DNA of 49,955 bases from NCBI GenBank assembly GCA_022447335.1, contig JAKVCF010000001.1:1-49955 (forward strand). Direction: 5' to 3'. The notes beneath the pieces were generated by a model. The model did not search any database and was not told the origin of the DNA. It worked only from the letters and a program-made list of their open reading frames with translations. The stretch comes from Planctomycetota bacterium (GTDB lineage Bacteria; Planctomycetota; UBA1135). The translations under genes and the position numbers were made by a program. Below, piece by piece: positions 13,521 to 46,107 of the stretch (positions are counted from its first letter, which is position 1; every line of letters starts with the position of its first letter).

Positions 13521-13577
13521 GCAGATTCAGATCTGCGGTCGGTTTCGTCATTCGAGCGCGTCGCCGACCGAAAGGGA

Positions 13578-14534
13578 TCAGTAGGCAGCGGGAGCGGGCA
13601 GCGGCTTCGTGCCGGCGCTGGTGGTGCGGATTGAGAACACGCGGCTGCGCGCCGTGATGTAAAGCGTCTTGCCGTCCGCGCCTCCAAAGGCGCAGTTCGT
13701 CGGCGCTTCCTCAAGCGGAAGTCGGGCAATCTCAATGCCGTCGGGGTCGAAGACCACGACCCCTTCGCGGGCGGTTGTGTAGAGCCGACCTTCTCGATCG
13801 ACTGCCATGCCATCGCTGAGACCGGGTGTCTGCCACTTGACGCTCATGTTGATGTCATTCACGCCACGGCGGTCGATGTTGTAGGCGGTAATCTGAGCCG
13901 GGGCCGAACGCATGTGCTCCTCCGGGTGTGAGTCGTGCCCGCCGGTGTCCGAGACGTAGAGAGTCTTGAAGTCGGGCGCAAAGGCAATGCCATTCGGCAT
14001 CGCGTGCAGGATGGAAACTTGGACTACCGTTCCCGCGTGCGGGTCAACGCGGTACACGCAGTTGCGGTCGACCTCGCGGCCCTCGCGTTGACGCGGCAGT
14101 CCCCACGGCGGATCGGTAAACCAGACCAGGCCCTCCTCATCGATGGCGAGGTCATTGGGGGAGTTGAGTCGCTTCTCGTTCCAGTGGCTCGCGACCGTTG
14201 TTAACGAACCGTCTTCCTCGGTACACACAATGTCGCGCGCTCCATGACGGCAGGTCATGAGGCGCCCGTTTCCATCGAGCAGGTTACCATTCGGATTTGC
14301 TTCCTCGCGAAAGACGTTCACGCCATCGACTTCGGTCCAGGACATCAGCTTGGCGTTCGGGATGTCGCTGAAGACCAACCTGGACTCGTTTGGAATCCAC
14401 ACCGGGCCTTCGGTAAAGCCCAAGTCCGACGCGATGGTCTGCACCGTCGCTCCTTCTTCAAAAACGGGAAGTTCGCTGAGGGCCGGCGAGCAGCTCGCGA
14501 GAAGGCCAAGGGGGAGGGTGCGCGCAAATCGCAT
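13578..14534 (-). CDS. SMP-30/gluconolactonase/LRE-family beta-propeller protein, lipoprotein-type signal
   Basis: Contains GFTEGPVW, NSPNDLAID, PNGIAFAP and SDGMAVD propeller-blade motifs. N-terminal LGLLASC lipobox. Confidence 0.8.
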   Translation of the reverse strand: MRFARTLPLGLLASCSPALSELPVFEEGATVQTIASDLGFTEGPVWIPNESRLVFSDIPNAKLMSWTEVDGVNVFREEANPNGNLLDGNGRLMTCRHGARDIVCTEEDGSLTTVASHWNEKRLNSPNDLAIDEEGLVWFTDPPWGLPRQREGREVDRNCVYRVDPHAGTVVQVSILHAMPNGIAFAPDFKTLYVSDTGGHDSHPEEHMRSAPAQITAYNIDRRGVNDINMSVKWQTPGLSDGMAVDREGRLYTTAREGVVVFDPDGIEIARLPLEEAPTNCAFGGADGKTLYITARSRVFSIRTTSAGTKPLPAPAAY

Positions 14535-14706
14535 GGGCGGGTAGAATACGGAGTGCGAAGCAACTCATCCTGCTTTGTCAGCGCACAACAGAGTCGAATC
14601 GTTCGCCGTGGCGAATGGCAAACGACTGCGCTGATTTCCCTGCCACGTCCGTCGCTGTTGTACGGGCCGGCGCGCAGCTACGGCTGCCACCGACCTCACC
14701 ACGACG

Positions 14707-16074
14707 ATGACTTCCGCCACTCAAGGTGCGGCGCAGGGCTTTATTGAGCTCGGCCTCAGCGACACCATTCTGAAGGGGATCGACTTTGCCGGCTTCGACA
14801 AGCCGCGGCCGATCCAGGTCCAGACCATTCCCGCTGCGGTCGAGGGCCGCGATGTCCTGGGCCTCGCTCAGACGGGCACGGGCAAGACGGCTGCCTTTGC
14901 TTTGCCAATCCTGGAACGCCTGCGCGAGCACCGCAAGATGCACCCGCGTGCGCTGATCATCGCGCCGACCCGCGAGCTAGCCACGCAGATTGCCGAGCAG
15001 ACCCGCGCACTGGCGCGCCACACCGGTCTCAAGGTCATCACGATCTTTGGTGGTGTCTCGCAGCGTATGCAGACCAGCGCACTGCGCCGCCACCCGGACG
15101 TGATTGTGGGTTGTCCTGGTCGTCTTTACGACCTGTACGAACAGGGCTTCCTGCATCTTGACCAGGTTGAAACGCTGGTGCTCGATGAAGCGGATCACAT
15201 GTTCGACATGGGCTTCCTGCCGACGATCCGCCGGATTTTGAAGCAGTTGCCTAATAATCGGCAGAATCTTCTTTTCTCAGCGACTATGCCCTTGGACATT
15301 CGCGGGCTGGCAAGTGAGATCTTGCATGATCCGCATCAGGTTGAGTTGACAATTCGCCAGCCAGCCCAGACTATCGATCACGCGTTGATAGCGGTTTCAG
15401 AGGATCGTAAGCGCGATCTATTAGACCGCGTGCTGCGCCGCGAAGATTGTCACTCTGCGATTGTGTTCTGTAGGACTAAGCACCGTGCGCGACGTTTGGC
15501 CGACCAACTTTGGAAGAACGGTCACAAGGCCATCGCACTGCAGGGGAATATGTCCCAGAACGCACGTGACCGTGCGATGCGCGGTTTCCGCGAGGGCAAG
15601 TTCCGCGTGCTTGTGGCAACTGACATTGTCGCGCGAGGTATTGATGTGCAGGGCGTGTCCTACGTCCTTAACTTCGATGTTCCCATGACGTCCGAGGCCT
15701 ACACGCACCGTATCGGTCGCACTGGCCGATCCGAGTTGGCTGGTAAGGCGCTGACCTTCTTGACCCAAGCCGATAAACGCTGGCTGAAGGCGACCCAGAA
15801 GATGCTTGGGCGTGAGATTAGGCGCCACAAGGAGAAGGGCTTTGACTCGGGTTACAACGAGCGCAACGCACCGCAGGAGCGAGTCTCTGGAGCCTTTGGC
15901 AAGAAGGCCCAGGGCAAGCAGGGCCCACCAAAGAAAAGGCGCGGCCCTGAGCCTGGTCGTAAGCGTGACAGTCGTCGCGGAGGTGCGCGTGGCAGTGTTC
16001 GCGGCTCGGCCCACGATCCGGCGAATAGTGCCTCTAAGAAAGGTGGGGGGGCACGTCGTGATGGGCGTCGCTAA
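14707..16074 (+). CDS. DEAD-box ATP-dependent RNA helicase with Arg/Gly/Lys-rich C-terminal tail
   Basis: Q motif GFDKPRPIQ, AQTGTGKT, PTRELA, DEAD (LVLDEADHMFD), SAT and HRIGRTGR are all present. Confidence 0.92.
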   Translation: MTSATQGAAQGFIELGLSDTILKGIDFAGFDKPRPIQVQTIPAAVEGRDVLGLAQTGTGKTAAFALPILERLREHRKMHPRALIIAPTRELATQIAEQTRALARHTGLKVITIFGGVSQRMQTSALRRHPDVIVGCPGRLYDLYEQGFLHLDQVETLVLDEADHMFDMGFLPTIRRILKQLPNNRQNLLFSATMPLDIRGLASEILHDPHQVELTIRQPAQTIDHALIAVSEDRKRDLLDRVLRREDCHSAIVFCRTKHRARRLADQLWKNGHKAIALQGNMSQNARDRAMRGFREGKFRVLVATDIVARGIDVQGVSYVLNFDVPMTSEAYTHRIGRTGRSELAGKALTFLTQADKRWLKATQKMLGREIRRHKEKGFDSGYNERNAPQERVSGAFGKKAQGKQGPPKKRRGPEPGRKRDSRRGGARGSVRGSAHDPANSASKKGGGARRDGRR

Positions 16075-16153
16075 CGATCTGTGACAGAGAGCGTATGAGC
16101 GATAGCATTCATGAGTGCCACGCAGCCTTGTCAGCCCAATCTAGTTTATTCAC

Positions 16154-17563
16154 ATGAAGTTTCTCACACTTGCTGCCTTCCTTCTACTGGCCTGCCCTCT
16201 GCTTGCGCAGAACAAGTTAAGGTGGGTGCCCGATGCCGACGTGGCTTTTGAGGCGGCCACCGAAGAAGGGTCTGTCATCTTTGTATCGATCGGATTTGTC
16301 GGCGAGGCGCGTAGCGAGGAGATTCGAAAGAGAGTTTTCGCAGATAAAGCAGTCATAGCTCAGGCTGCGCGAACGATCAACGTGCCCGCTTGGACTTGGG
16401 CGATTGGTGACGAGAGGAGGCTGCCTGACTTCGGGAAGGCGGAGGCGCTCGATCATTCGGCAAATCTCGCGCGTGCGACCAGTGAGTGGATCTCGGTGAA
16501 CGCTCTTGGTACTTTTGCGGCTCCTCAACACCTTTGGTTGAATGGGGCAGGAGAAGTTTTATTGTCGGTGCCGTGGGAGTTAGATGCCGACGAAATGAGT
16601 TGGTGCTTTGATGAGGCGTTGCGCCTGGCAGCCGTGGAGGATCGTCCGGCGCCAACTAAAAAATCTCATCCTCCACGCCGATTACTTTTTGGGGCAGTCA
16701 CCAGCGTGCTTGATGACGATGATCTCGGGCGCGGTCTTACGGATGATGAACTCGAGCCCACGATGAAGCGACTGAAGAGAGGGTACGTGACTGCGCGCAA
16801 TCGTGATGACATCGGCCGCATTATGTTCACAGCAAACGAGGATGGGGCCGAGTTCCTCGGCCAGCAAATAGATATTTGGGCTCTTGGCGGTTCATCGACC
16901 TCCGGGATTATCGACTTTGTCTATGGCCTGATTGGTCTAGTGGCTCCAGTCGAGTTTCTCGAATTGCTGGAGAGCAAAGTTGGTTCACCGCGAGCGAGTT
17001 TGCGTGCGATCATTGCGGTCGGATACGAGCAAATAGGTCATCCGGATGGTTTAAAGGCAGTTAAGAAGGCGCTCAAGAGCGAGAAGGATGAGGTTGTCCG
17101 GCCCGAGTGGGTGCGTGCTTTGGGCGCATGTGCCTCGCGCGACAAGTCAGTTGCGAAGCAGCTGATCAAGTTTGCCGAGAGGGATGACAACTCATTGGTG
17201 CAACTGAATGCAGTACTTGCCCTGGGGCACGTACTACCGCAGCCGGATGCGCGTGATTGGCTAATCGAGATGGCCGAAACGGCTATCGGGGAAAGGCAAT
17301 GTGCTGCGGCGTTAGCGCTCGCTTTGGGCCGTGAGCGCAGTGCAATCGATACACTTAAGAAGCTTCGCGGGGAAGTCAAGCTTGAGGCGAGCATTGCGGC
17401 TTTCGATTCCGCAATCAAAGTGCTTGAAGGCGCCAATCTCTTTGAGCTTGAAGATGCTGTACGCGCGATCGATGGAAGCGACTTACCGCGCCCCCGTCTC
17501 TTTTACCGGCCGAAGTTTGACATACCGGAGAGTGGTGAGGAGAGCGGCGAGGGGGAAGGCTAG
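16154..17563 (+). CDS. Secreted protein: thioredoxin-fold-like N-terminus lacking CxxC, plus C-terminal HEAT/armadillo-like repeats
   Basis: Signal peptide MKFLTLAAFLLLACPLLAQ. C-terminal repeated helical units (RAIIAVGYEQIGHPDGLKAVKKAL..., VQLNAVLALGHVLPQPDARDWL..., RQCAAALALALGRERSAIDTL). The domain calls are tentative. Confidence 0.45.
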   Translation: MKFLTLAAFLLLACPLLAQNKLRWVPDADVAFEAATEEGSVIFVSIGFVGEARSEEIRKRVFADKAVIAQAARTINVPAWTWAIGDERRLPDFGKAEALDHSANLARATSEWISVNALGTFAAPQHLWLNGAGEVLLSVPWELDADEMSWCFDEALRLAAVEDRPAPTKKSHPPRRLLFGAVTSVLDDDDLGRGLTDDELEPTMKRLKRGYVTARNRDDIGRIMFTANEDGAEFLGQQIDIWALGGSSTSGIIDFVYGLIGLVAPVEFLELLESKVGSPRASLRAIIAVGYEQIGHPDGLKAVKKALKSEKDEVVRPEWVRALGACASRDKSVAKQLIKFAERDDNSLVQLNAVLALGHVLPQPDARDWLIEMAETAIGERQCAAALALALGRERSAIDTLKKLRGEVKLEASIAAFDSAIKVLEGANLFELEDAVRAIDGSDLPRPRLFYRPKFDIPESGEESGEGEG

Positions 17564-19188
17564 CCGTCGTTTTCGGTTTCGAGCTTCGCTAAGAACTTGG
17601 CGGGGTTGGCTTGAAAGGTTTTCGGGCAGTTTGGGCAGCAGAAGCCGATGACCTTTCCATCGTGCAGCAGGTTGAATTGTGGATCAATCACATTGCCGCT
17701 GACGAGGCAGATGCTGTTGACGGGATTTTGTGTAGTGAGCGAGTTGGTTTCCGGGTCGAGGGCCGGGTCGACTTGCGAGGCATCATTGGTGAGCTTTGGT
17801 GTTTCTTCAGTCTCGAGTGCGACTGATATGCCGACGTCGCCGGCATCGATGTGCACCTCTGGCATAGCTTTGCGTAGAGTGGCCAGGCCCTCGGTGGTTA
17901 TGCCAGCATCCCAAATCCAAAGTCGCTCGAGCGCGGGCAGTTGCCCGAGCGTTTCGATCACAGCGTCGTTCAGATGCGTGCGACTAACGATCAGTTCACG
18001 TAGATGATCATGGCCGGCGAGGTAGGCCAGGCCAGAGGTAGTCACTCGCGTTTCGCGCAGGTCGAGGCGTACCAGGGCGGGTATAGTCGAAATTATTTCA
18101 ACGCTTGCATCGGTGATCTGCGTGCGCGCAAGCGAGAGATCGCTAATCCATTTGATGGTCGGGGTGATTAGCTCAAGCACTATGGCGTCATCAGTTGTAT
18201 TTGCGGGGGCGGCAAAGTCGACCCAAAGCATTTTGGATCCAACTTCGACGGGCTGTACGTGCACCAGATGCTTACGCATGGCCGACAGCGCGGCTTCAGG
18301 GGCGGCGTGCGCGGCACTCTCTTCTTCTGGATCAGTTGCGCCTTCACTTTCATTTGCCGGGTTAGTCGGCAGTGGCAATTTGGCGCCTTCAGCGAGCTCG
18401 AACTCGTTTTCGAAGGGTGCGCCGGCAGCAAGCCAGGCGCGTATCAGTTGAATTTCTAGCTCGCTCGGCTGGGCCTTGTGGTCCGGCGGCATGTGATCGT
18501 CGTCATCGATCGGGAGTAGTATGCGATGAAGCAGTTCCTGATCTTCCGGTGAGATGCCGGTTTCGATGGCTGGGCCGCCATCGCCGCCCGCAAGCAATGC
18601 CTCCGGAGAGTCCGTCCGTAGGCCGCCTTTGACTTTGCGATCACCGTGGCACATGTTGCATTTCGCCTCAAAGAAGTGCTGAATGTGCAACTCGTAGCTG
18701 GCCAGGATCAGGCTGCCTCCCTCTGGGGTAGTCTGATTGGCCGACATCGATTCCTTAGGTTCGACCAGTGGCTTGAACAGGAAGCCTTTGCCGTGAGTCA
18801 TTTCGGCGCCGAAGTGACCTGTCGGAATCATGACGATCACCGTCAGGGCCAAAGCCCAACGGTACATCGTTCGTGCGCCAAATATGCGCAGTAGGAAGAC
18901 TACGATGCTACATGCTGCAGTAGCTATGCCGAGCTGCTCATGTAGTTTGAGTACTTCACTCGCGCTGTAGCTGGGATCGTTGTGTAGCACAACTCCGCTC
19001 GCTGCAGCCAGGCATGCAGAAACGCTTGCGAAAAAGACGAGGAATGCCGGCGCCACTGGCTGGCGCCGTAACGTGTTGACGCACTCCAGCATCACCAGGC
19101 CAATCAGTATGCCGATGGGTAGGTGCAGAATCAGCGGGTGCATTCGGCCAAAGACCGAAAGTAGTTCAGAAGCGGAATCGATTGGCAT
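17560..19188 (-). CDS. Membrane-anchored c-type cytochrome domain (PSCyt-type) / leucine-rich-repeat / C-terminal YHS-like domain protein
   Basis: N-terminal multi-TM region. CNMCH heme-c motif at 18646..18660 within FFEAKCNMCHGDRKVKGGLRTDS. LRR units (LSLARTQITDASVE..., LDLRETRVTTSGLAYL..., LIVSRTHLNDAVIETL...). C-terminal ICLVSGNVIDPQFNLLHDGKVIGFCCPNCPKTFQANPAKF resembles YHS/TRASH metal-binding domains. Confidence 0.65.
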   Translation of the reverse strand: MPIDSASELLSVFGRMHPLILHLPIGILIGLVMLECVNTLRRQPVAPAFLVFFASVSACLAAASGVVLHNDPSYSASEVLKLHEQLGIATAACSIVVFLLRIFGARTMYRWALALTVIVMIPTGHFGAEMTHGKGFLFKPLVEPKESMSANQTTPEGGSLILASYELHIQHFFEAKCNMCHGDRKVKGGLRTDSPEALLAGGDGGPAIETGISPEDQELLHRILLPIDDDDHMPPDHKAQPSELEIQLIRAWLAAGAPFENEFELAEGAKLPLPTNPANESEGATDPEEESAAHAAPEAALSAMRKHLVHVQPVEVGSKMLWVDFAAPANTTDDAIVLELITPTIKWISDLSLARTQITDASVEIISTIPALVRLDLRETRVTTSGLAYLAGHDHLRELIVSRTHLNDAVIETLGQLPALERLWIWDAGITTEGLATLRKAMPEVHIDAGDVGISVALETEETPKLTNDASQVDPALDPETNSLTTQNPVNSICLVSGNVIDPQFNLLHDGKVIGFCCPNCPKTFQANPAKFLAKLETENDG

Positions 19189-19193
19189 TGGGA

Positions 19194-20711
19194 CTAAGCG
19201 AGCAGTTCCTTGCGCACGTCACCAAAGACATCGGTCAGTCGCATGTCGCGGCCCTGATGGCGATAGCCTAGCCGCTCATGGTCGAATCCAAGGCAATGCA
19301 GGAGCGTCGCGTGTAAATCATGAACACTGACTGGGTTCTCGACGATGTTGTATCCGAAGTCGTCAGTCTTGCCAAAGCTGATGCCCGGATTCATGCCACC
19401 CCCGGCGGCCCATACGCTGAAGGCGCGGGGGTGGTGATCGCGACCATAGTTAGTCTTAGTTAACTGGCCTTGGCTGTATACGGTGCGTCCAAATTCACCG
19501 GCCCATAGCACCAATGTGTCATCTAGTAGGCCGCGACGCTTGAGGTCCTTGATTAGAGCTGCTTGCGGTTGGTCGACCGTTCCGGCCTGTGCGCGCAGTT
19601 CATTGGGCAAGTTGCCCAGCTGGTCCCATCCCCGCATGTACAGTTGAATGAAGCGCACTCCGCGTTCGGCGAGGCGGCGCGCCATCAGACAGTTCGAAGC
19701 GTAACTTCCCGGCTTTTTAACATCGGGACCATACATTTCTAGTGTGGCCTCATCTTCGTCTGAGAAGTCGGTCAATTCGGGCACTGACATTTGCATGCGG
19801 TATGCCATCTCGTATTGTGAGATCCGGGCTTGCACCTCAGGGTCGAGGCTCCGCTCATACTCGCGCTCATTGAGCTCACCAACTAGGTCGAGCATGCGGC
19901 GGCGGTCTTCGCGCGTCACGCCGTCCGGGTCGCTTAGATATAGCACTGGGTCTCCGCCCGCTCGCATCTTGCATCCCTGGTGCTCGCTGGGTAGGAATCC
20001 CGAACCCCAGAAGCGTGCCGATAGCGCCTGCATGTTGCCGGTGCCTTGCGTGATCATGACTACAAAAGTAGGCAGATTGGCATTGGCGCTACCTAGCCCA
20101 TAGGACATCCATGAGCCGAAGCTCGGTCGGCCAGGCTGCTGGTTTCCGGTCTGGAAGAAAGTAATTGCAGGTTCGTGGTTAATCGCCTCGGTGTGCATCG
20201 AGTTGATCATGCAGATCTCCTTCGCCACCGATCCGGTGTGGGGTAACAGCTCCGATAGCCACAGGCCGTTCTGATTGTTCTCGTAGCGCGAGAACTGAAA
20301 GATAGAGGGGGCAACTGGGAAGCGTGCCTGGCCACTAGTCATGCCAGTCAAGCGTTGGCCGTCGCGAATCGAATCCGGAAGATCCTGGTCAAAGCGTTGG
20401 CGCAGTCCTGGCTTGTAGTCATACAGGTCAAGGTGGCTCGGCGCGCCCTCCATGTGCATGTAGATGACGCGCTTGGCCTTTGGCTTGAAATGTGGGCCCA
20501 GTGGCAGAGCGCTGCTACCCATGGCACCTGCTTTGTTGGGAAGGCCGGCCAAGGTGGCCGGATTGGCGCCTAGCTCGCGGCCAAGCAGCGACTGCATGGC
20601 CAGGGCGCCGAGGCCAGTACTGAGCGTCGCACCGGCCTTGCGGAAAAAGCGGCGGCGGGTGAGCAGTAGTTCGCGCTCGCGCAGAGGGTCGTTCGTATGA
20701 GGATCGGTCAT
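19194..20711 (-). CDS. DUF1501-family protein (sulfatase-like fold) with twin-arginine signal
   Basis: Tat motif TRRRFFRKAGATL. Conserved blocks SMHTEAINHEPAITFFQTG, WAGEFGRT and YGRDHHPRAFS. Paralogous to 44704..46107. Confidence 0.85.
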   Translation of the reverse strand: MTDPHTNDPLRERELLLTRRRFFRKAGATLSTGLGALAMQSLLGRELGANPATLAGLPNKAGAMGSSALPLGPHFKPKAKRVIYMHMEGAPSHLDLYDYKPGLRQRFDQDLPDSIRDGQRLTGMTSGQARFPVAPSIFQFSRYENNQNGLWLSELLPHTGSVAKEICMINSMHTEAINHEPAITFFQTGNQQPGRPSFGSWMSYGLGSANANLPTFVVMITQGTGNMQALSARFWGSGFLPSEHQGCKMRAGGDPVLYLSDPDGVTREDRRRMLDLVGELNEREYERSLDPEVQARISQYEMAYRMQMSVPELTDFSDEDEATLEMYGPDVKKPGSYASNCLMARRLAERGVRFIQLYMRGWDQLGNLPNELRAQAGTVDQPQAALIKDLKRRGLLDDTLVLWAGEFGRTVYSQGQLTKTNYGRDHHPRAFSVWAAGGGMNPGISFGKTDDFGYNIVENPVSVHDLHATLLHCLGFDHERLGYRHQGRDMRLTDVFGDVRKELLA

Positions 20712-20725
20712 TTGAACTTCAGCAC

Positions 20726-23700
20726 TTACTTGCGGGAGATGGTCTCGTCGAGGGCTAGGAGAGCATTGCCGAGCATGGTCCAGGCGGCCAGTTCGGCAGG
20801 GTCGTACTCTGCAGGAAGCATGGCTTCACCGACGGAGATCAGCTTTCTGGCGTCTTCAATGGCATTCGTATAACGTTCTTGGAAGGCTTCGAGTACTTCA
20901 CGCAGGCGGACAAGTTCTGCGGTTTCCGGCATTCGGCTGGTACAGCGGCGGAACATGCGCGCGATGCGCCAGTCAGTGGCGTCATTCAGAAGCTCTCCCA
21001 TGTTGGCAGGCGGTTCCTCAGCGAGTATGCGCTGAGAGAGTAGGCGTGCTGATTCGACAAACTGTTCGTCGTTCCAAAGTACTAGCGCCTGCAGTGGCGT
21101 GTTAGTTACGCCACGGCGAATGGTGCAGAACTCACGGGTTGGTGCATCGAAGGTTAGTAGTGATGGCGGTGGAACAGCGCGTTTCCAGTAGGTGTAGATG
21201 CTGCGCCGCCAGAGGTCATCGCCTTCCCCTTGCTCGAAATTGCGTGTATTGGATTGTGGCATCGCGACTTCGCGCCAGAGGCCAGAGGGTTGATATGGCT
21301 TTACTGATGGGCCGCCCATTTGTTCAACCAGCAAGCCCGATACATAGAGGGCTTGGTCGCGTATCTCTTCGGCTCCCAATCGACGGCGGGGGTAGTTCCC
21401 CAGCAGGCGACCTCCCGGGTCGGCAGCAGAGACTTCGGGGCGTAGGCGTGAGTCTTGGCGGTAGGTTGAGCTGGTCACTATGCGGCGCAGAATCGCGCGC
21501 GTATCCCAACCGCTTTCTCGAAACTCAACGGCGAGCCAGTCAAGTAGTTCGGGGTGACTAGGCCAGGATCCTTGCAGCCCAAAGTCTTCACTAGTTTCAA
21601 CAATGCCCGAGCCAAAGACCATTTCCCAGTAACGGTTGATAGTTACGCGCGCGAGTAGCGGGTTATTGGCATCGGTCAGCCACATCGCCAGACCACGCCG
21701 GTCATTTGGTGCGCCTTCAGGCAGTGAACCTAGTGAGGCGGGAATGCCCCGCTCAACCGGGCGATCCTTGTCTGGGTGGTCATAGGCGCCGCGCATCAGA
21801 ACAAAAGTTTCACGCGGACTTTCCAGTTCTTGCATGACCATTGTCAGTGGGATGGAAGATTCGATTGTGTCCAGCTCAGTCGCGAGTTCCTCGATCTTGG
21901 TCAGCTTGGCAAGGAATGCTGGTGAGTGCTGTGTACGCCAAGTTGCCGACATACGCTGGGCTAGGTTGTTGGCGCCCAGTTCGCGGGAGGATTCCGGCGT
22001 CAGTGCAAAGACTAATGATCCCCCTAATTCATCTTGCGGCGGACGCGCTTCGTAGTACAGGCCGCCAGCGCCGCCTGTGTTGATGATTTTCATGACGAAG
22101 GTGTGTACGCCTGGCGTAAGCTTGATCACGACCTTTTCCTGATCCGGAGCGACGCCGCGGTTAACTCGGTTCTCGTGGATCATTTTTCCATTCAGATAAA
22201 CCTGAATGCCATCATCGGACCCTAGCGAGAGTTCTAGTTCGCGTTCGCTCGGTACAAATAGTCGCTTACCAGCGAAGCTGATTGCCTGGCCGGATGGTAA
22301 TGAAGTAACTCGCTCGCCATCCTTGACTTGTGCGACGAAGACCCAGCTGTAGTTGTCGGGCGCATATTTTTTGGCGAAGTCGATAGTCGAATCGGCCTCT
22401 GGGCCAAACACGGTGTCGTAACCCGGATCACCTTCGCTTTGTGGTTTGTATGGCCAGGTTCCATACCAGCGTGAATCGGCAATAGGGAGCGCAGCTAGGC
22501 CATCGGCGCCGATGTTTCCCGGAGTCAAGCGTACGCGCCCAAAAGAATGTTCACTGTAGATCGATTGGTAGTGAAGCGTGATCTTCAGGTCGGTGCCACC
22601 TGGGTATCCGAAAGGTTTGTCGGTTAGGAATATTGCGTTGCGGCCACCGGGGGTATTGTGAGCGTCTACGGCCCAGACTTTGTTGTGGTCCGGGTCCAGG
22701 ACATTTACCACGTCGAAGTCGGCATCTGCTTGTTCGAAGTCTGCCCAGGCCCAGGTGAATTTCAATGGCTCACGAATAGTCGAGTCGGCCAGTGAAATAG
22801 CCTCAGCTTCGATATGTGAAAGTACGGCGTTGCCATTTGAGGCACGACCGACGCGCCCCTCGGTATGACTAGGGTCGCCGATCGCTTCCAGTAGCAATGT
22901 GCGCAGATTTGTGTCCATTGTGCGCAACACGATCGTGTGACTTTCTTTGGCCGGGCTTTCTCCGCTTGCCAAGATTGAGCCATCGTTCTGCGGGGTCAAG
23001 GTCGAGCCGGCGCTCGCTTCGGCCGAGATGAACTCGTTCTCCGACCACATGACGCTATATCTTTGCGCGGCGCTGCTGAGAAAAGTTTCATAAGCGATTG
23101 CGTCTTCACTCGATGGTTTTGCCATCTCTGTTTGCAGCTGCTCAATCTGCTTCTTTAAGTCAGCCTGTGCGATCGTCTGCTTTTCGCTTGGCACCTGCAT
23201 GAAAGGCTCAAAGGCGCGTTGCGAATTGGGGAGTTGGCTGTAAAGGCCCGGCTCCTGGTTCGAGTTGAAGTACGCGAAGAGCGAGAAGTACTCCTCCTGT
23301 GATATTGGGTCGAACTTATGGTCGTGACAGCGGCTGCATTCGACGGTGAGGCCGAGGAAGACAGCGCCTGTCGTTGCCGTGCGGTCTGCAGCGTATTCGA
23401 CCAGATATTCCTCATTGATTGCGCCACCTTCGTCGGTAATGACATGGTTGCGGTGGAATCCACTCGCTACCTTCTGCGCAATTGTGGCGTTGGGGATCAG
23501 GTCGCCCGCGAGTTGTTCGTAAACGAACTCATCAAAGGGCTTGTTGTTGCGAATCGATTCGAGCACCCAGTCACGCCAAGCCCACATTTGGCGCCCAGCA
23601 TCCATATGGATGCCATTGGTGTCGGCGTAGCGTGCAGCATCAAGCCACGGAGTCGCCATGCGTTCGGCATAGCGGGTTCTGTATGGCTCTTTAGTAAGAA

Positions 23701-24412
23701 TCTTGTCAACTAGCGCTTCATAAGCCTCCGGATCACGCGCTGCTTGTTTGAGGTAGGAGTCAAGTTCTTCAGGGGTCGGTGGCAGCCCGGTAAGGTCTAG
23801 GAAGACTCGGCGAGCTAAAGTCGCTTGATCTGCTTCGGCTGATGGAGTTAGGCCGGCGCGTTCCAGGCCTTGCAGTACGAAGGCATCCATTGGGTCGCGT
23901 ACCCACTCCAGTTGTTTCGGCGTCGGTACTTCTGGACGTTCTGGGGGGATGAATGCCCAGTGATCTTCATAGACCGCTCCCTGTTCGATCCACTTGTGGA
24001 TGAGCTCCTTCTCATCGCGCGTTAGCGGCCGCACTTTGCTGTCAGTTGGCGGCATGATTTCCGAGTCGCCGTGATCCAGGCTGATGCGATACCAAAGTTC
24101 GCTTTCGTCTGGGTTGCCTGGCACGATCGCCCTGTAACCGCCAAGGTCCGCCGTGGCAAAGGTGTGTGAGTCGAGGCGCAGGTCGGCTTTGAGCGTAGCT
24201 TCGTCTGGTCCGTGGCAGACAAAGCAGCGGTCACTCAGTAGAGGTCGAATGTCACGGCCGTAGCGAACTTGTTCCTGGGTGACTGGATCTTGCGCAGTGG
24301 CCAAATCGGCGGTGCCCTCAGGGGAGGGGGACAGCCAGCCCGGGGTCGCGGCGGCAAGGCCTGCGAGGCCTAGGCAAGAAAGAGCGCGAAGTGGGAGAGT
24401 GGGGGTCGGCAT
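20726..24412 (-). CDS. Giant secreted PSCyt(cytochrome c)/DUF1549/PA14-like/DUF1553 (PSD1) protein
   Basis: Signal peptide present. DRCFVCHGPDEA heme-c motif, WLDAARYADTNGIHMD, ECSRCHDHKFDPISQEEYF, a PA14-like block SLGSDDGIQVYLNGKMIHEN...HTFVMKIINTGGAGGLYYE, and a C-terminal TFDAPTREFCTIRRGVTNTPLQAL block. Confidence 0.85.
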   Translation of the reverse strand: MPTPTLPLRALSCLGLAGLAAATPGWLSPSPEGTADLATAQDPVTQEQVRYGRDIRPLLSDRCFVCHGPDEATLKADLRLDSHTFATADLGGYRAIVPGNPDESELWYRISLDHGDSEIMPPTDSKVRPLTRDEKELIHKWIEQGAVYEDHWAFIPPERPEVPTPKQLEWVRDPMDAFVLQGLERAGLTPSAEADQATLARRVFLDLTGLPPTPEELDSYLKQAARDPEAYEALVDKILTKEPYRTRYAERMATPWLDAARYADTNGIHMDAGRQMWAWRDWVLESIRNNKPFDEFVYEQLAGDLIPNATIAQKVASGFHRNHVITDEGGAINEEYLVEYAADRTATTGAVFLGLTVECSRCHDHKFDPISQEEYFSLFAYFNSNQEPGLYSQLPNSQRAFEPFMQVPSEKQTIAQADLKKQIEQLQTEMAKPSSEDAIAYETFLSSAAQRYSVMWSENEFISAEASAGSTLTPQNDGSILASGESPAKESHTIVLRTMDTNLRTLLLEAIGDPSHTEGRVGRASNGNAVLSHIEAEAISLADSTIREPLKFTWAWADFEQADADFDVVNVLDPDHNKVWAVDAHNTPGGRNAIFLTDKPFGYPGGTDLKITLHYQSIYSEHSFGRVRLTPGNIGADGLAALPIADSRWYGTWPYKPQSEGDPGYDTVFGPEADSTIDFAKKYAPDNYSWVFVAQVKDGERVTSLPSGQAISFAGKRLFVPSERELELSLGSDDGIQVYLNGKMIHENRVNRGVAPDQEKVVIKLTPGVHTFVMKIINTGGAGGLYYEARPPQDELGGSLVFALTPESSRELGANNLAQRMSATWRTQHSPAFLAKLTKIEELATELDTIESSIPLTMVMQELESPRETFVLMRGAYDHPDKDRPVERGIPASLGSLPEGAPNDRRGLAMWLTDANNPLLARVTINRYWEMVFGSGIVETSEDFGLQGSWPSHPELLDWLAVEFRESGWDTRAILRRIVTSSTYRQDSRLRPEVSAADPGGRLLGNYPRRRLGAEEIRDQALYVSGLLVEQMGGPSVKPYQPSGLWREVAMPQSNTRNFEQGEGDDLWRRSIYTYWKRAVPPPSLLTFDAPTREFCTIRRGVTNTPLQALVLWNDEQFVESARLLSQRILAEEPPANMGELLNDATDWRIARMFRRCTSRMPETAELVRLREVLEAFQERYTNAIEDARKLISVGEAMLPAEYDPAELAAWTMLGNALLALDETISRK

Positions 24413-24516: not shown

Positions 24517-25596
24517 TCATTCTCGAGTGGCACTGCCAGCTGTCACTCTTTTCGCCCAGGGCGATCCTTGGCGGTAGTCCTCAGGCCTGTATCCGGTGCG
24601 CGCGCCGTTGAAGCCGAAGGGGGTTGGGTGCCAGTTCTCGGTCAGGGTGGCGGGGAACCCCTCGCGTGGGATCACATCGGCCTCGCCTAGGCACCACAGG
24701 CTGGCGTTGAGTAAGAGGCGGCGGAGGTCGACATCAGTCCAATCATCGGCTGTGCCCATAGTCGTTGTGAACACTCGCTGAGACGGCCGTCCATCATCGC
24801 GAAGGATCTCACGGACCCAAGCGACCGGCATCATCGGTGAGTTCTTTTTACCTTCCAGTGCCGGATCATCTGGCGACATGCCAGATACGACCTGGCCTTC
24901 GAGTAGCACGGTCGCGTCGCCTGGCAATTCTCGTACACCGTATACATCGCTTGGACCGAATGCTGGGCCGACACCGCGTAGCGCCGGATGATGAGCCTGC
25001 ATCGGATGTGGTAGTGCGCGCGTGGCTTGGCTGCCGTGGTTGCCATGGTGACTAATCCAAGTTTCGCCGAGTATCTGGCGGCCGAAGCCATCCTTCCAAT
25101 CTTGTGCGCGGAAGTCCCAGTGCGCATAGCGATCCTTGCGATTTTTCTTGTAGTGGAAAGCGTGCGTCGAGGTGCGGATTCCGATTACCGGTTTACCTGC
25201 TTCGATGTAATCAACGATCGGCTTCATCTGCGCCTCTGGTAACTCACGAAAACGAAGCTGAATCACTAGCAAGTCAGCATTAGCAATCAGTTCTGTGCCT
25301 GGAATATGGTGCAGTTGGTTTGGGTCAACTTCTCCAGTTTCAGGATTTTGGCTGAATAGCACGTAGCATTCGAAGCCTAGTGCATGCAGTTGGCGTGCCA
25401 GCATCGGTTGCACTTCTTCTGAACGATACTCTTCGTCGCCTGCAATCAATACAACGCGACGGCCCTTCCCGGGCGCCTGGCCGGCATTGTTTGGGTAGTG
25501 CAGCCAAGGAGTTTCCAGTCCTCCTGGAGGCGCGTTGCCTTCGAGTTGGGCGGGAAGCGCAGTGGTCGCAAGGAGTAGGGGGGCCAAGGCGAACAT
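24517..25596 (-). CDS. ThuA-like / class-I glutamine-amidotransferase-like fold secreted protein (tentative)
   Basis: Signal peptide MFALAPLLLATTALPAQ. The RRVVLIAGDEEYRSEEVQPMLARQL...LLVIQLRF...GKPVIGIRTSTHAF layout resembles ThuA-domain proteins common in PVC genomes. Catalytic assignment not possible. Confidence 0.4.
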   Translation of the reverse strand: MFALAPLLLATTALPAQLEGNAPPGGLETPWLHYPNNAGQAPGKGRRVVLIAGDEEYRSEEVQPMLARQLHALGFECYVLFSQNPETGEVDPNQLHHIPGTELIANADLLVIQLRFRELPEAQMKPIVDYIEAGKPVIGIRTSTHAFHYKKNRKDRYAHWDFRAQDWKDGFGRQILGETWISHHGNHGSQATRALPHPMQAHHPALRGVGPAFGPSDVYGVRELPGDATVLLEGQVVSGMSPDDPALEGKKNSPMMPVAWVREILRDDGRPSQRVFTTTMGTADDWTDVDLRRLLLNASLWCLGEADVIPREGFPATLTENWHPTPFGFNGARTGYRPEDYRQGSPWAKRVTAGSATRE

Positions 25597-25653
25597 GAGC
25601 TGAGCCTAGCCGAGTTGGACAGTGGCGGTAGTGGGCGGCAGGATAGTGCCGTC

Positions 25654-27531
25654 ATGCGCAGTCGTCCCTCCTGGATTCTGGCCTTCGCTCCTCTGGCCCT
25701 CGGTTTGGGAGCGCTCCGCTCGACTGAGTTGGCATCTAACGAGTGGCAATGGTTATTTTTGACGGACGACCGTCAGCCGGGTTACTCCGCTTCGCAAGGT
25801 GCGCCACCGGCAACGCGTGGCAGCGCTGATAGCTATGCGCCGAGCGAAAATGGGCACGGTCTTATCTTTAACCAAAAGGAGGATGTGCTGGTTGTGGCCG
25901 CTCCCTTAGGTGACCGATTTAGCCAGATGCCGCGTGCGGCGATGAGTGTCGAGGCTTGGGTCGCGATCGAGCGGCCGCAGCGCTGGGGTGGGGTCGTGAG
26001 CTGCCTACAAGACAATGCTAATTACGAGAAGGGATTCGTCCTGGGTTATGACGATCAGCACTTCACTTTCGGTCTGGCGACTACGGGCATGGATGATGGC
26101 GACGGCCGCATGAGTTACTTCACGGGGCGCACGCCCTTTGAAGTGGGGCGTTGGCATCATGTAGTTGCGACATTCGATGGCGAGGTTTCATGCATCTATG
26201 TCGATGGAGCGCTTGACTTCGAGTCGAAGTTACAGCATGGAGAAGTGCTGTACGACCCTAGTGCGCCTTTAGTGATTGGCGCTTACCGCGATGATAACGA
26301 AGACAATGTTCTTGATGGCCGCATGGCCTCTGTGACTATCAGCGACAAAGCCTGGTCACCGCGAGAGATTGCAAAGCGTTACGCCGAGCATCGTGAGCGG
26401 AGCAAGCTCCCGATATGGACTGATACAGAGTTTGGTTTTTCGGTAGACCCCTTCTTGACTTGGCCGCGTGTCGATGGAGTCAGCTTGCAATGTGAGACTA
26501 CCTTTCCAGCGCGTGCCGAGCTGCGCTTACGGCGTGACGATCAGGGCGAGATAGAGGTTGCTGCACATCGTTCGGAAGATATGCGCACACTTCATACTTT
26601 TCGTTTACGCGATCTGACTGCGAATCAGAAGTACTTCTACTCGGTATACGTTGAGAGTGCGAGCGGTGAATCGGTCGAGTCTCCGGTGCGTTCTTTCCGC
26701 ACCGCTTCAACGGAGGATCGTTCGTATACCTTCGCTGTGATTGGGGATACACAGACGAACGGAGCGGTGGCTGGGCGCGTGGCTCAACTGGCTTTCGAGC
26801 ATCGCCCAAATTTTGTTGTGCACTGTGGCGATCTAGTCGATACAGGTGGCAACAAGCGCGATTGGACCGATACTTTTTTCCCAGCTATGCAGCCGCTTCT
26901 CGCGCACGCACCGATGATGCCGGTCCTTGGCAATCATGAGCAGGATGCGCGACTCTATTACGACTACATGGATTTGCCCGACCCGGAACGCTGGTACAGT
27001 TTCGAATACGGCAACGCCGAGTTCTTCATGATCGATGGCAATCGTTCATTGGAAGATCAGTCGGAGCAGCTGGAATGGCTGAAGTCCGCACTACGGAATT
27101 CGAGGGCGACTTGGCGATTTGCCGTACTTCATCAGCCGCCTTATACCAGCGACTCCAATGATTATGGCAATACGGCGACGACTAGCTCGACGCGTGGAGA
27201 TATGAATGTGCGCAATATCGTGGCTTTGCTTGAGCGCTATGGAGTAGACCTATGCTTTTCAGGTCACGTACATGACTACGAGCGCACCTTTCCTATCTTT
27301 GGAGGGGAGGTGCAGCCCTATAGCAAGGGTGGAGTGATCTACGTCACCGCTGCCGGGGGAGGGGGGTCACTCGAAGATTTCGATGCAACTAACACGTGGT
27401 TTGGGCATAAGAAGGCGCGCCGCCACCATTTCGTCTATCTTGCGATTCATGGCGAACAGCTCGAATTGCATGCCGTAGATGAAGAAGGTCGACTTTTCGA
27501 CGTGCTGACGCTGCAGCAGCGCGGCCGCTAA
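25654..27531 (+). CDS. LamG-like domain + purple-acid-phosphatase-type metallophosphoesterase, secreted
   Basis: All five metallophosphoesterase motifs are present in order: VIGDTQ, HCGDLVD, GNHE, VLHQPP and GHVHDYER. N-terminal LamG-like block (MSVEAWVAIE...WHHVVATFDG...IYVDG). I prefer the ATG at 25654 (MRSRPSWILAFAPLALGLGA signal) over the TTG at 25615, which lies only 18 nt from the divergent gene. Confidence 0.8.
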   Translation: MRSRPSWILAFAPLALGLGALRSTELASNEWQWLFLTDDRQPGYSASQGAPPATRGSADSYAPSENGHGLIFNQKEDVLVVAAPLGDRFSQMPRAAMSVEAWVAIERPQRWGGVVSCLQDNANYEKGFVLGYDDQHFTFGLATTGMDDGDGRMSYFTGRTPFEVGRWHHVVATFDGEVSCIYVDGALDFESKLQHGEVLYDPSAPLVIGAYRDDNEDNVLDGRMASVTISDKAWSPREIAKRYAEHRERSKLPIWTDTEFGFSVDPFLTWPRVDGVSLQCETTFPARAELRLRRDDQGEIEVAAHRSEDMRTLHTFRLRDLTANQKYFYSVYVESASGESVESPVRSFRTASTEDRSYTFAVIGDTQTNGAVAGRVAQLAFEHRPNFVVHCGDLVDTGGNKRDWTDTFFPAMQPLLAHAPMMPVLGNHEQDARLYYDYMDLPDPERWYSFEYGNAEFFMIDGNRSLEDQSEQLEWLKSALRNSRATWRFAVLHQPPYTSDSNDYGNTATTSSTRGDMNVRNIVALLERYGVDLCFSGHVHDYERTFPIFGGEVQPYSKGGVIYVTAAGGGGSLEDFDATNTWFGHKKARRHHFVYLAIHGEQLELHAVDEEGRLFDVLTLQQRGR

Positions 27532-44703: not shown

Positions 44704-44707
<4 letters not shown>
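41735..44707 (+). CDS. PSCyt(cytochrome c)/DUF1549/LamG-like/DUF1553 (PSD1) protein
   Basis: DKCFACHGPDAA heme-c motif, WMDIARYADTYGYQND, FECARCHDHRYDPISQVEYY, a LamG-like block (FTVSMWLKLDG...GWQLLIEDGRLTAALVHF...LAYDGSSNAYGMALSVNGE) and IFDAAKRDVCVVKRQETQTPLQVL. Paralogue of 20726..24412. Confidence 0.85.

Positions 44708-46107
<1,400 letters not shown>

Follow-up and report, generated by a model that had tools for sequence, protein, structure and literature searches.

A predicted membrane-anchored cytochrome c with an LRR domain is encoded beside conserved PSCyt/DUF1501 gene pairs in Planctomycetota and other phyla

Three closely spaced minus-strand genes of a marine Planctomycetota bacterium (GCA_022447335.1, contig JAKVCF010000001.1) raise the question of whether they encode the parts of one periplasmic assembly and, if so, what the third of them contributes. 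In the window, i.e. the whole stretch of 49,955 nucleotides that was analysed, the open reading frame list and Pfam matches place gene 1, an 'A-type' giant of 1228 aa, at 20726..24412 (-), and gene 2, a DUF1501 protein of 505 aa, at 19194..20711 (-); gene 3, a 542 aa membrane-anchored cytochrome c comprising a four-TM DUF2231 bundle, PSCyt1, LRR and a Cys4 YHS/TRASH-like tail, is listed at 17560..19188 (-). The gene 1/gene 2 junction reads TAA-14 nt-ATG and the gene 2/gene 3 junction TAG-5 nt-ATG. The original prediction had described these frames and spacers exactly, and the domains that it named are present, with corrections; one of these is that it counted two heme-c sites, whereas the trio carries three CxxCH motifs (C63FVCH and C359SRCH in the giant and C177NMCH in gene 3). 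Its view of the locus as an undescribed system applies to the third partner, of which we found no description in the literature, but not to the pair of giant and DUF1501, which was published in 2012 together with a four-gene variant containing a PSCyt1/WD40 gene (PMC3542564). We found no paper assigning a function to DUF1501 or to the PSCyt/DUF1549/DUF1553 proteins.

Comparative gene order supports the view that genes 1-3 behave as a unit. The gene 3 family is large (1,587 representatives at E<=1e-30, with at least 578 relatives in species genomes), and the order giant, DUF1501, gene 3 was present between unrelated flanks in all three loci looked up first. Conserved synteny of the third gene, on which the original prediction had staked its case beforehand, is observed in at least three phyla: in 64 of the 79 informative loci (81%), which come from Planctomycetota, Verrucomicrobiota and Bacteroidota/Balneolota, gene 3 is found downstream of a giant and a DUF1501 gene that share its strand. 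The upstream DUF1501 gene is at most 400 nt away in 46/79 loci and 0.4-3.9 kb away in 18/79; in the adjacent set the median gap is some 20 nt. PVC genomes hold greatly expanded sets of such pairs (PMC3542564, PMC5615132), and two of them occur within this one 50-kb window, so it could be argued that the adjacency is a functionally meaningless by-product of that expansion. The loci hold just 3 further DUF1501 genes in about 1.37 Mb, however, or some 1 per 450 kb, yet 64 of the 79 have a same-orientation copy directly upstream of gene 3; the flanks differ completely from locus to locus, and the arrangement is kept across phyla. Cross-phylum synteny effectively refutes this explanation, to which we attach almost no probability.

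The trio also occurs in cultured strains, i.e. of Fodinibius, Aquirufa, Pseudozobellia and Xanthocytophaga (L052, L065, L066, L074, L075, L081). In Bacteroidota, extra genes often sit between DUF1501 and gene 3, those inserted including xylose-isomerase-like TIM barrels and DRL/Gfo-type oxidoreductases. Of 91 related loci, 18 carry an additional NHL beta-propeller gene, an optional element that the window lacks. The gene immediately upstream of the giant is ThuA-like in the window and in L001 and belongs to the 3keto-disac_hyd family in L087.

The original prediction had also raised the possibility that gene 3 is tied to a specific DUF1553-DUF1501 subclade, and for Planctomycetota this stands. 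The giants beside gene 3 align there from end to end, the central 500 aa included, with full-length identities of 53-87% across more than 120 clusters of the orthogroup, and the neighbouring DUF1501 proteins share 64-92% identity, compared with 55-62% to the other pair in the window; judged by these alignments, the Planctomycetota partner of gene 3 is one highly conserved subclade ('A'). In addition, 17 homologs of the giant agree with homologs of gene 3 in the length of their longest contig. The reverse link is partial, with three of seven independently picked A-type giants having gene 3, three lacking it and one having a B pair downstream at the edge of its locus. The window's own B-type pair, as defined by Pfam matches, spans 41735..46107 (+) and consists of a PSCyt1/DUF1549/Laminin_G_3/DUF1553 giant (41735..44707) and a DUF1501 gene (44704..46107). 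It is orthologous (DUF1501 identity 69-77%) to pairs in L006, L010, L007 and L008, of which the first two carry the B pair in tandem with an A pair and gene 3, in the order A-B or B-A, and the last two carry gene 3 directly after a B-type pair; in L089 an A pair is followed by a LamG-bearing pair. The B-type pair may thus be a second client for gene 3, whose occurrence after either type is more in keeping with a shared adaptor than with a subunit specific to one substrate.

The position of gene 3 after A- and B-type pairs alike also agrees with a rival reading, in which it is an all-purpose periplasmic cytochrome c with a membrane anchor that carries electrons to or from the respiratory chain for many client enzymes. 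It would then be co-regulated with the pair without being a dedicated subunit, and its LRR domain would bind something else, e.g. an envelope component. The three independently picked A-type giants without gene 3 are in line with such a carrier, as are the 15 of 79 loci in which no pair is found near the gene 3 relative, and the ThuA and 3-keto-disaccharide hydrolase neighbours, since the periplasmic dehydrogenases of those pathways are cytochrome-c dependent (PMC8121099). Against this, a linkage of 81%, in which order and strand are fixed and only a few nucleotides separate the genes in several phyla, is far tighter than would be expected of a shared electron carrier, the Planctomycetota partner belongs to one specific, highly conserved subclade, and a general carrier would have no need for an LRR solenoid and a Cys4 domain co-conserved with the heme domain. 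We regard the general carrier as a serious but rather improbable alternative to a dedicated adaptor. The pairless gene 3 relatives adjoin SusC/SusD genes (Emticicia), a sugar-type ABC transporter (Opitutales) and a DUF4198 gene (Phycisphaerae MAG).

The giant begins with a hydrophobic, signal-like segment and has Pfam matches above the gathering scores to PSCyt1 (aa 63-124, 56.7 bits), PSCyt2/DUF1549 (aa 174-386, 257.9 bits) and PSD1/DUF1553 (aa 905-1173, 319.6 bits). Its first heme-c motif, C63FVCH in PSCyt1 (24212..24226, -), lies in columns at least 90% conserved in alignment A3, and the second, heme-c-type motif, C359SRCH in PSCyt2 (23324..23338, -), is conserved in the same alignment within CxRCHDHKFDP; the counterpart of the second motif in the other giant of the window is CARCH. 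An AlphaFold model of aa 390-905 (m07eefae40cf9, pLDDT 92.1) predicts two beta-sandwiches. The first, at about aa 460-633 (22514..23035, -), is CBM-like according to the model and Foldseek and has no Pfam match; the second, at about aa 650-790 (22043..22465, -), contains SLGSDDGIQVYLNG and appears PA14-like on the same basis. With the fragment as query, Foldseek matched CBM-like domains of glycoside hydrolases (best 1e-6) and the PA14 domains 3ac0 and 6m8m (probability 1.0), with overall TM-scores that are low because the sub-domain alone aligns. Because the search used the whole fragment, without query ranges, it is on our reading of the model that the PA14 matches probably belong to the second sandwich. 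The PA14 domain originally predicted for the giant is thus suggested by the fold, but not by Pfam, in which PA14 (PF07691) gave no match even at E<=10.

Gene 2, which starts 14 nt downstream of the giant, matches DUF1501 with 500.4 bits and carries the twin-arginine motif RRRFF at aa 19-23 (20643..20657, -). The Pfam clan of DUF1501 is, as we take it, the alkaline-phosphatase (AP) superfamily, and it is on this clan that the earlier description of a sulfatase-fold subunit rests: the best PDB matches, to sulfatases, LtaS and ENPP4, reach only E about 0.3 over one strand-loop motif, every one of these weak matches being to an AP-superfamily member, and the C/S-x-P-x-R sulfatase signature is absent from all 27 DUF1501 sequences. 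Given the missing signature and the marginal PDB matches, a type I (formylglycine) sulfatase is ruled out. The invariant residues S92, N178-H179, D363, D425-H426 and H478 are compatible with an AP-type metal site.

For gene 3, the multi-TM anchor, the CNMCH motif at 18646..18660 and the LRR domain that had been predicted are all present. The anchor is a DUF2231 four-helix TM bundle (aa 17-132; 18793..19140, -), as assigned from the model, Pfam and conservation. The TM domain alone scores 29.3 bits against DUF2231 (PF09990), above the 26.4 cut-off, whereas the full protein falls below it at 24.6 bits; all 25 family members searched match, with a best E=6e-12. The model (pLDDT 92.5) places helices at residues 22-40, 48-69, 78-102 and 106-132, and the loops obey the positive-inside rule. 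H17, H22, H83, H125 and H132 are invariant or near-invariant and lie at helix ends predicted to face the periplasm (A1, A2, A5); among 107 family sequences H22, H83, C177, C180, H181 and M233 are invariant. Foldseek found no solved relative of the TM fold (best E~1). Faint matches of the TM domain to cytochrome b561 (6/25), DUF4405, cytochrome bd subunit I (CydA residues 19-74, E=0.037) and PepSY_TM hint at heme b, although they are sub-significant and involve TM families in which compositional matches are common. With the conserved histidines all on one side of the membrane and the profile matches far below thresholds, there is no support for a classical two-heme transmembrane wire or for a di-heme b561-type domain, which would have a His pair near each membrane face.

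The bundle is followed by a PSCyt1 heme-c domain, identified by Pfam (PF07635, 39.1 bits versus a 22-bit cut-off), at aa 177-236 (18481..18660, -), which contains C177NMCH and M233-P-P. The CxxCH and MPP motifs are kept in the gene 3 relatives of all 83 loci compared, and M233 is a candidate Met ligand. Heme attachment to a CxxCH domain requires a periplasmic location. The predicted topology likewise puts the heme-c, LRR and Cys-rich domains in the periplasm, alongside the presumably Sec-exported giant and Tat-exported DUF1501, and so fits a membrane-tethered periplasmic assembly. The LRR domain, at about aa 322-450 (17839..18225, -), has at least four 24-residue repeats, with starts at this spacing at aa 372, 396 and 420. 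It was recognised with the family profile, which matches the GALA LRR (E=2.4e-18) and ribonuclease inhibitor (3e-14) in the PDB; Pfam LRR_4 matches 15 of 18 members and falls just under its cut-off in gene 3 itself (25 versus 27 bits).

The protein ends in a Cys-rich, YHS/TRASH-like zinc-ribbon-type tail (aa 491-529; 17602..17718, -) with invariant N491, C494, C517, C518 and C521. The YHS-like metal-binding domain of the original prediction holds as a superfamily-level likeness, with YHS matches at E<0.01 in 8 of 18 aligned homologs, but not as a domain assignment: the YHS (PF04945) score in gene 3 is 18.5 bits, under the 30.3 cut-off, and the canonical C-x2-C-x19-22-C-x3-C pattern was not found in the family's tails, 101 of 103 of which have the zinc-ribbon-like Cys4 variant C-x22-CC-x2-C. 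The nearest PDB matches are the zinc domain of the ATCase regulatory chain and L24e. YHS domains are typical of copper-related proteins, and gene 3 might be a metal-handling or metal-sensing protein, with its His cluster and tail binding Cu, Zn or Fe and delivering it to, or gating, the giant, and its heme c being an accessory, e.g. for metal reduction. The clustering of the five conserved histidines at the outer face, the invariant Cys pattern with its YHS/TRASH-type matches, the tandem double tail of some homologs (P0005), and the DUF4198 gene upstream in L012 and faint DUF4198 match downstream in L085 would all suit such a role. The tail, however, is absent from Bacteroidota/Balneolota relatives that keep the synteny and is replaced in those of Saprospiraceae by lectin-like CHB_HEX/F5-8C domains, which makes it dispensable for the conserved core; moreover, a Tat-exported DUF1501 should already hold its metals, and the conserved neighbourhood is without metal transporters or chaperones. 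A metal-handling role consequently appears distinctly unlikely, well behind that of a general carrier.

The explanation that we prefer, and put at about an even chance, is that the trio is a conserved operon-like module for a membrane-tethered periplasmic assembly in which gene 3 is the electron-relaying adaptor. The giant would be a secreted protein that has two carbohydrate-binding-like beta-sandwiches besides its two CxxCH motifs, and would bind a substrate, presumably glycan-like. DUF1501, as a folded AP-superfamily metalloenzyme exported by the Tat route, would be the catalytic subunit, cleaving or transferring esters. As a dedicated adaptor, gene 3 would sit with its 4-TM DUF2231 bundle in the cytoplasmic membrane, where the His cluster at the periplasmic face might bind a b-type heme or a metal, and would hold its PSCyt1 c-heme domain just outside the membrane, followed by the LRR and the Cys4 zinc-ribbon-like tail. 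The LRR solenoid may dock the soluble partner or partners, so that gene 3 keeps the A pair, plus the B pair if present, at the membrane and relays electrons between the quinone pool or a c-type respiratory branch and the hemes of the giant; this relay would link a redox reaction to the processing that the bound substrate undergoes. A wider and considerably more speculative proposal, which we advance as possible but improbable, is that DUF2231-PSCyt1-LRR proteins are the missing membrane link of the PSCyt/DUF1501 systems, as b/c-type membrane cytochromes that join the quinone pool or respiratory chain to one or more pairs of A or B type and an optional NHL propeller. Planctomycetota, Verrucomicrobiota and Bacteroidota would then have a new class of periplasmic machines, coupled to respiration, that process phosphate or sulfate esters bound to glycans or some comparable substrate of the core envelope.

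The proposed role of gene 3 resembles that of NapC, NrfH and CymA, i.e. small membrane-anchored quinol-dehydrogenase cytochromes of c type that are encoded next to their periplasmic client and relay electrons between it and the membrane. These, however, have one TM helix, four hemes and no LRR, whereas gene 3 combines four TM helices with a single CxxCH, possibly a His-ligated cofactor in the bundle, an LRR and a Cys4 tail, and is unrelated to them in sequence and fold. With cytochrome b561 and Ni_hydr_CYTB, gene 3 shares a four-helix TM bundle with conserved His and the faint matches in 6 of 25 members, but its His residues are at the periplasmic face only, a cytoplasmic-side heme is unsupported, and Foldseek gave no match. 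The 3-keto-glycoside pathway (LacABC/ThuAB, 3-keto-disaccharide hydrolase) also uses periplasmic c-type cytochromes (PMC8121099), and the variable neighbours of the trio include ThuA-like and 3keto-disac_hyd genes; such neighbours, however, belong to expanded families outside the conserved core, and the trio encodes no dehydrogenase of the pathway.

The closest precedent is the two-gene locus of PVC bacteria described by Kamneva et al. 2012 (PMC3542564), in which a PSCyt1/PSCyt2/PSD1 giant with optional carbohydrate-binding inserts is paired with a twin-arginine DUF1501, and for which electron transport and membrane targeting were proposed; that paper cites Studholme et al. 2004 for the domains themselves. 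Genes 1 and 2 conform to this locus, with all three giant domains and an adjacent DUF1501, but differ in belonging to an unusually conserved subclade, in the two-beta-sandwich insert and in the third gene, which is not in that paper. The four-gene cluster of the same study (DUF1501 / PPC-like / PSCyt1-Big_2-PSCyt2-PSD1 / PSCyt1-WD40; PMC3542564) likewise has, beside the DUF1501/giant pair, a further PSCyt1 cytochrome that is smaller than the giant and carries a protein-interaction repeat as a fusion, and its PSCyt1/WD40 gene is thus a precedent for a second PSCyt1 plus repeat protein in DUF1501 clusters; the partner here, however, is DUF2231(4 TM)-PSCyt1-LRR-YHS-like, and Big_2, WD40 and PPC have no match in the trio or its neighbours. 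DUF1501 and PSCyt/DUF1549/DUF1553 are among the most expanded families of Planctomycetota and Verrucomicrobia and are common in Bacteroidota (PMC3542564, PMC5615132). The trio, as an unusually conserved version of the pair system with its own membrane-anchored cytochrome, offers a concrete entry point to these proteins and, if the electron relay proves true, would tie a large block of 'dark' periplasmic proteins to respiration.

The three minus-strand ORFs have the same coordinates as in the original prediction, i.e. a PSCyt1/DUF1549/DUF1553 protein (the giant; 20726..24412, 1228 aa), a DUF1501 protein (19194..20711, 505 aa) and a membrane cytochrome c (gene 3; 17560..19188, 542 aa). The giant and DUF1501 genes are separated by 14 nt (TAA-gtgctgaagttcaa-ATG), and the DUF1501 gene and gene 3 by 5 nt (TAG-tccca-ATG); the ATG at 19188 is the true gene 3 start, because the N terminus that it defines aligns with those of homologs. 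The gene 3 stop overlaps that of a convergent HEAT-repeat gene (16154..17563, plus strand) by 4 nt (17560..17563), leaving no space between them for an intrinsic terminator. Consensus scans of 16.5-25.8 kb, which are uninformative for Planctomycetota, gave promoter and terminator matches not above shuffled expectation, with no convincing internal promoter or terminator on the minus strand. A ThuA-like gene (24517..25596) lies on the giant's (minus) strand, 104 nt upstream of it, and beyond it is a divergent Laminin_G_3/calcineurin-like metallophosphoesterase gene (25615..27531, plus). These two neighbours, the HEAT-repeat gene and an SGL gene are kept only in the closest relative, L001, and were rejected as core members. 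The window has no Rfam families and no tRNAs. It does hold a urocanase (11835..13520, plus) and an N-formylglutamate-amidohydrolase-like gene (38026..39267, plus), histidine utilisation genes lying 25 kb apart and unclustered, as well as a D12-class N6-adenine DNA methyltransferase (28082..29104, plus) with no obvious restriction partner among its Pfam-annotated neighbours.

Gene 3 belongs to a large family, with more than 249 full-length homologs (35-74% identity), 1,587 matches at E<=1e-30 among the representatives of a 50%-clustered library and at least 578 relatives in species genomes. The first three contexts viewed, at 64%, 47% and 37% identity, all have the giant, DUF1501 and gene 3 in this order on a single strand; in the second and third the flanks are unrelated to those of the window. 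When 83 loci were searched by tblastn with the window's giant and DUF1501, 79 had sufficient upstream sequence; the DUF1501 gene ends within 400 nt of the gene 3 start in 46/79 (median gap about 20 nt, with several overlaps), lies farther upstream (0.4-3.9 kb) but still on the gene 3 strand in 18/79 and is absent upstream in 15/79. The expectation that gene 3 is syntenic with such pairs in other genomes is thus borne out. Adjacency by chance is excluded with only a very small residual probability, because the approximately 1.37 Mb of fetched DNA contains only three other DUF1501 genes. Gene 3 loci occur in Planctomycetota (Phycisphaerae and others), Verrucomicrobiota (Limisphaerales, Opitutales), Bacteroidota (Saprospiraceae, Cytophagales, Flavobacteriaceae) and Balneolota (Fodinibius). 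On one metagenomic contig (L002) the trio is followed by one E1_dh gene (11859..13007) and then by an alternative-complex-III-like operon with SCO1/SenC (13217..21593), including a multiheme cytochrome, Fer4, NrfD and an ActD/cbb3-type cytochrome c, a respiratory neighbourhood seen in this one locus only.

In Planctomycetota, the association also holds at the level of subclade. There the giant beside gene 3 aligns full-length with that of the window, including its central 500 aa, and the adjacent DUF1501 shares 64-92% identity with the trio copy of the window vs 55-62% with the other DUF1501 of the window. We refer to this pair subclade as A type. Its giant forms an orthogroup (53-87% identity over 1,200 aa, more than 120 clusters) that is far more conserved than gene 3. 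Expanded PSCyt/DUF1501 paralogs are usually assumed to have a diversified nutrient-scavenging role; the conservation of the A type suggests instead a fixed, core substrate. The window's second pair, the B type (41735..46107, plus), comprises a PSCyt1/DUF1549/Laminin_G_3/DUF1553 giant and a DUF1501 whose start overlaps the giant stop by 4 nt, and is followed by a phosphonate-type periplasmic binding protein gene (PF12974; 46216..47100, plus). Its orthologs elsewhere (DUF1501 69-77% identical) occur in the orders B-A-gene 3 (L006) and A-B-gene 3 (L010), or directly before gene 3 (L007 and L008, gaps 7 and 2 nt), and in L089 the A pair is followed by a LamG-bearing pair that is probably a B-type ortholog. 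Because B pairs also precede gene 3, the latter is not confined to giants with the A-specific insert, and may serve both pair types.

Viewed from the giant, the link is frequent, not obligatory. Seven informative A-type giants were picked without regard to gene 3: three (L087, L088, L091) have DUF1501 and gene 3 after them, two (L085, L090) have DUF1501 without gene 3 and then ECF-type sigma-factor genes, one (L086) stands alone and one (L089) precedes a B pair at the edge of the locus. The sigma-70/ECF-type genes after the gene-3-less pairs (L085 13227..16343, L090 10355..12072) include a 1038-aa fusion in one genome and a gene after YCII in the other. In addition, 17 giant homologs show the same 'longest contig' value as gene 3 homologs. 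Gene 3 relatives without a pair are found after SusC/SusD (Emticicia), a sugar-type ABC transporter (Opitutales) or DUF4198. Such loci are consistent with gene 3 being a general periplasmic electron carrier, merely co-regulated with the pair; set beside the short gaps and the subclade association, we consider this the lesser possibility, though one of some substance.

With respect to the giant, Pfam assigns PSCyt1 (aa 63-124), PSCyt2/DUF1549 (aa 174-386) and PSD1/DUF1553 (aa 905-1173). The original prediction counted two heme-c sites in the trio; there are three heme-c-type motifs, since the giant has a second conserved CxxCH (C359SRCH, within the CxRCHDHKFDP motif of PSCyt2). The predicted PA14 domain gave no Pfam match even at E<=10, and a sequence search of the PDB with the giant returned nothing significant, but AlphaFold modelling of aa 390-905 from 72 orthologs (pLDDT 92.1, very confident) gives two beta-sandwiches between long helices. 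Foldseek relates this model to carbohydrate-binding-type domains of glycoside hydrolases (best 1e-6) and to the PA14 domains of 3ac0 and the RTX adhesin 6m8m (24% identity), both with probability 1.0; the PA14 call is therefore to be read as a fold-level resemblance, not as a family match.

The DUF1501 protein has a twin-arginine motif (RRRFF) at its N terminus and a DUF1501 domain over aa 79-503 (Pfam). A classical sulfatase identity was rejected, because the C/S-x-P-x-R signature is present in 0/27 DUF1501 sequences, and a sequence search of the PDB gave no significant match, with sulfatases, LtaS and ENPP4 appearing only at E about 0.3. It should rather be named an alkaline-phosphatase-superfamily-type enzyme, that being the clan to which we take DUF1501 to belong.

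Gene 3 has a PSCyt1 domain (Pfam, aa 177-236), the CNMCH of which lies at 18646..18660, as first located. With the full-length protein, DUF2231 and LRR matches are below the Pfam threshold; the transmembrane (TM) domain scanned alone passes for DUF2231 (29.3 bits), which 25/25 family members match. A model of aa 1-265 from 107 sequences (pLDDT 92.5, very confident) has four TM helices (22-40, 48-69, 78-102, 106-132) ahead of the cytochrome domain. Loops 1-2 and 3-4 are positive and the N terminus and loop 2-3 acidic, which together with the modelled helices indicates an N-out/C-out topology, predicted to place the CxxCH domain, LRR and tail in the periplasm. Heme-c attachment needs a periplasmic CxxCH domain. 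A sensor/anti-sigma role was rejected, because the cytoplasmic loops are just 3-8 residues and there is no cytoplasmic domain. The LRR is confirmed by a family profile match to GALA and ribonuclease-inhibitor LRR structures (E=2e-18).

H22, H83, G65 and G127 are invariant in gene 3, and H17, H125, H132 and E35 at least 90% conserved, the conserved TM-domain histidines all being at periplasm-facing helix ends. Foldseek found no solved relative of the TM-heme model in the PDB, its matches being generic helical bundles with E about 1 at best. There are faint but recurrent profile matches to cytochrome b561 (6/25 members, best E=7e-5), to other heme-b families (DUF4405, cytochrome bd subunit I, PepSY_TM) and to CydA residues 19-74 (E=0.037), and equally faint ones to the non-heme TM families TgpA_N (9/25) and DUF998 (7/25) and to proteorhodopsin (E=0.026). 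As a lead, the heme-b matches may point to a single cofactor with His ligands, either heme b or a metal, on the outer side and beside the c heme. The YHS-like tail holds at the family level (8/18 aligned homologs match), but in the window's own protein it is sub-threshold (18.5 bits vs a 30.3-bit cut-off). A variant Cys motif, N-x2-C-x22-CC-x2-C, occurs in 101/103 tails, the nearest solved relatives of which are Cys-ligated zinc domains (ATCase regulatory chain, E=0.005; ribosomal L24e, E=0.02). The closest homologs (P0002-P0005, 600-602 aa) have two tandem Cys-rich YHS-like tails and the window's protein one (alignment columns 601-721). The His cluster and Cys4 tail could together serve metal handling; we regard this as improbable.

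The genes around the trio vary. Of the Bacteroidota loci with an insertion between DUF1501 and gene 3, seven encode an NHL beta-propeller (accompanied or not by a CHB_HEX/F5-8C gene), four a xylose-isomerase-like TIM barrel, three a DRL/Gfo-type oxidoreductase and one a GHL6 protein, a variability that led us to reject a fixed fourth subunit. NHL homologs, of six-bladed beta-propeller type, occur in 18/91 loci across all three phyla (L004, L028, L032, L033, L039, L040, L043, L050, L058, L059, L061, L062, L064, L066, L079, L081, L088 and L091), where they follow gene 3, separate it from DUF1501, or lie upstream of the giant in divergent orientation; they are a possible optional fourth component, and the window has none. 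In Saprospiraceae gene 3 relatives without a pair, CHB_HEX_C/Fn3_assoc and F5/8-type-C lectin-like domains replace the YHS tail (L047 10001..12055, L038 9755..12013), and in other Bacteroidota CHB_HEX_C plus F5/8-type-C is encoded by a gene of its own, located between DUF1501 and gene 3 (L050 8988..9773, L062 9132..9992), a difference suggestive of domain fusion or fission. Immediately upstream of the giant are ThuA (window, L001) or a 3-keto-disaccharide hydrolase (L087). Since periplasmic 3-keto-glycoside dehydrogenases are cytochrome-c dependent (PMC8121099), these accessories hint, loosely, at periplasmic, cytochrome-linked sugar chemistry; the accessory families are themselves expanded and none is in the conserved core.

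Overall, the observation is confirmed with four corrections. The earlier interpretation is partly supported, as to a gene module with periplasmic tethering; the complex and its chemistry are putative. We give about an even chance to a reading in which gene 3 serves the pair specifically, as its membrane tether and electron relay. Its LRR would dock the giant and/or DUF1501, and its putative b- and c-type cofactors would connect both hemes of the giant with the quinone pool or a c-type respiratory branch, while the beta-sandwiches of the giant would hold a glycan-like substrate on which DUF1501 would do ester chemistry.

NapC/NrfH-type proteins are membrane-anchored cytochromes encoded next to their periplasmic clients; gene 3 would resemble them in its proposed function but is unrelated. 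In the literature on DUF1501, DUF1553, DUF2231, PSCyt and YHS/LRR/cytochrome proteins, including Kamneva et al. 2012 and He et al., we found neither a functional study nor any account of a DUF2231-PSCyt1-LRR-YHS partner, gene 3 synteny or the A/B tandem. The pair itself was described by Kamneva et al. 2012 (PMC3542564) as a 'conserved genetic module', a description that the pair within the trio fits. That study also describes a four-gene variant with a PSCyt1/WD40 partner, which the trio is not, the domains being different. The trio, which also occurs in cultured strains (Fodinibius, Aquirufa and Pseudozobellia among them), offers a clearly delimited entry point, of unusual conservation, to a problem of long standing; the present evidence makes it a variant, with a new third partner, of a known uncharacterised pair rather than a new kind of biology.
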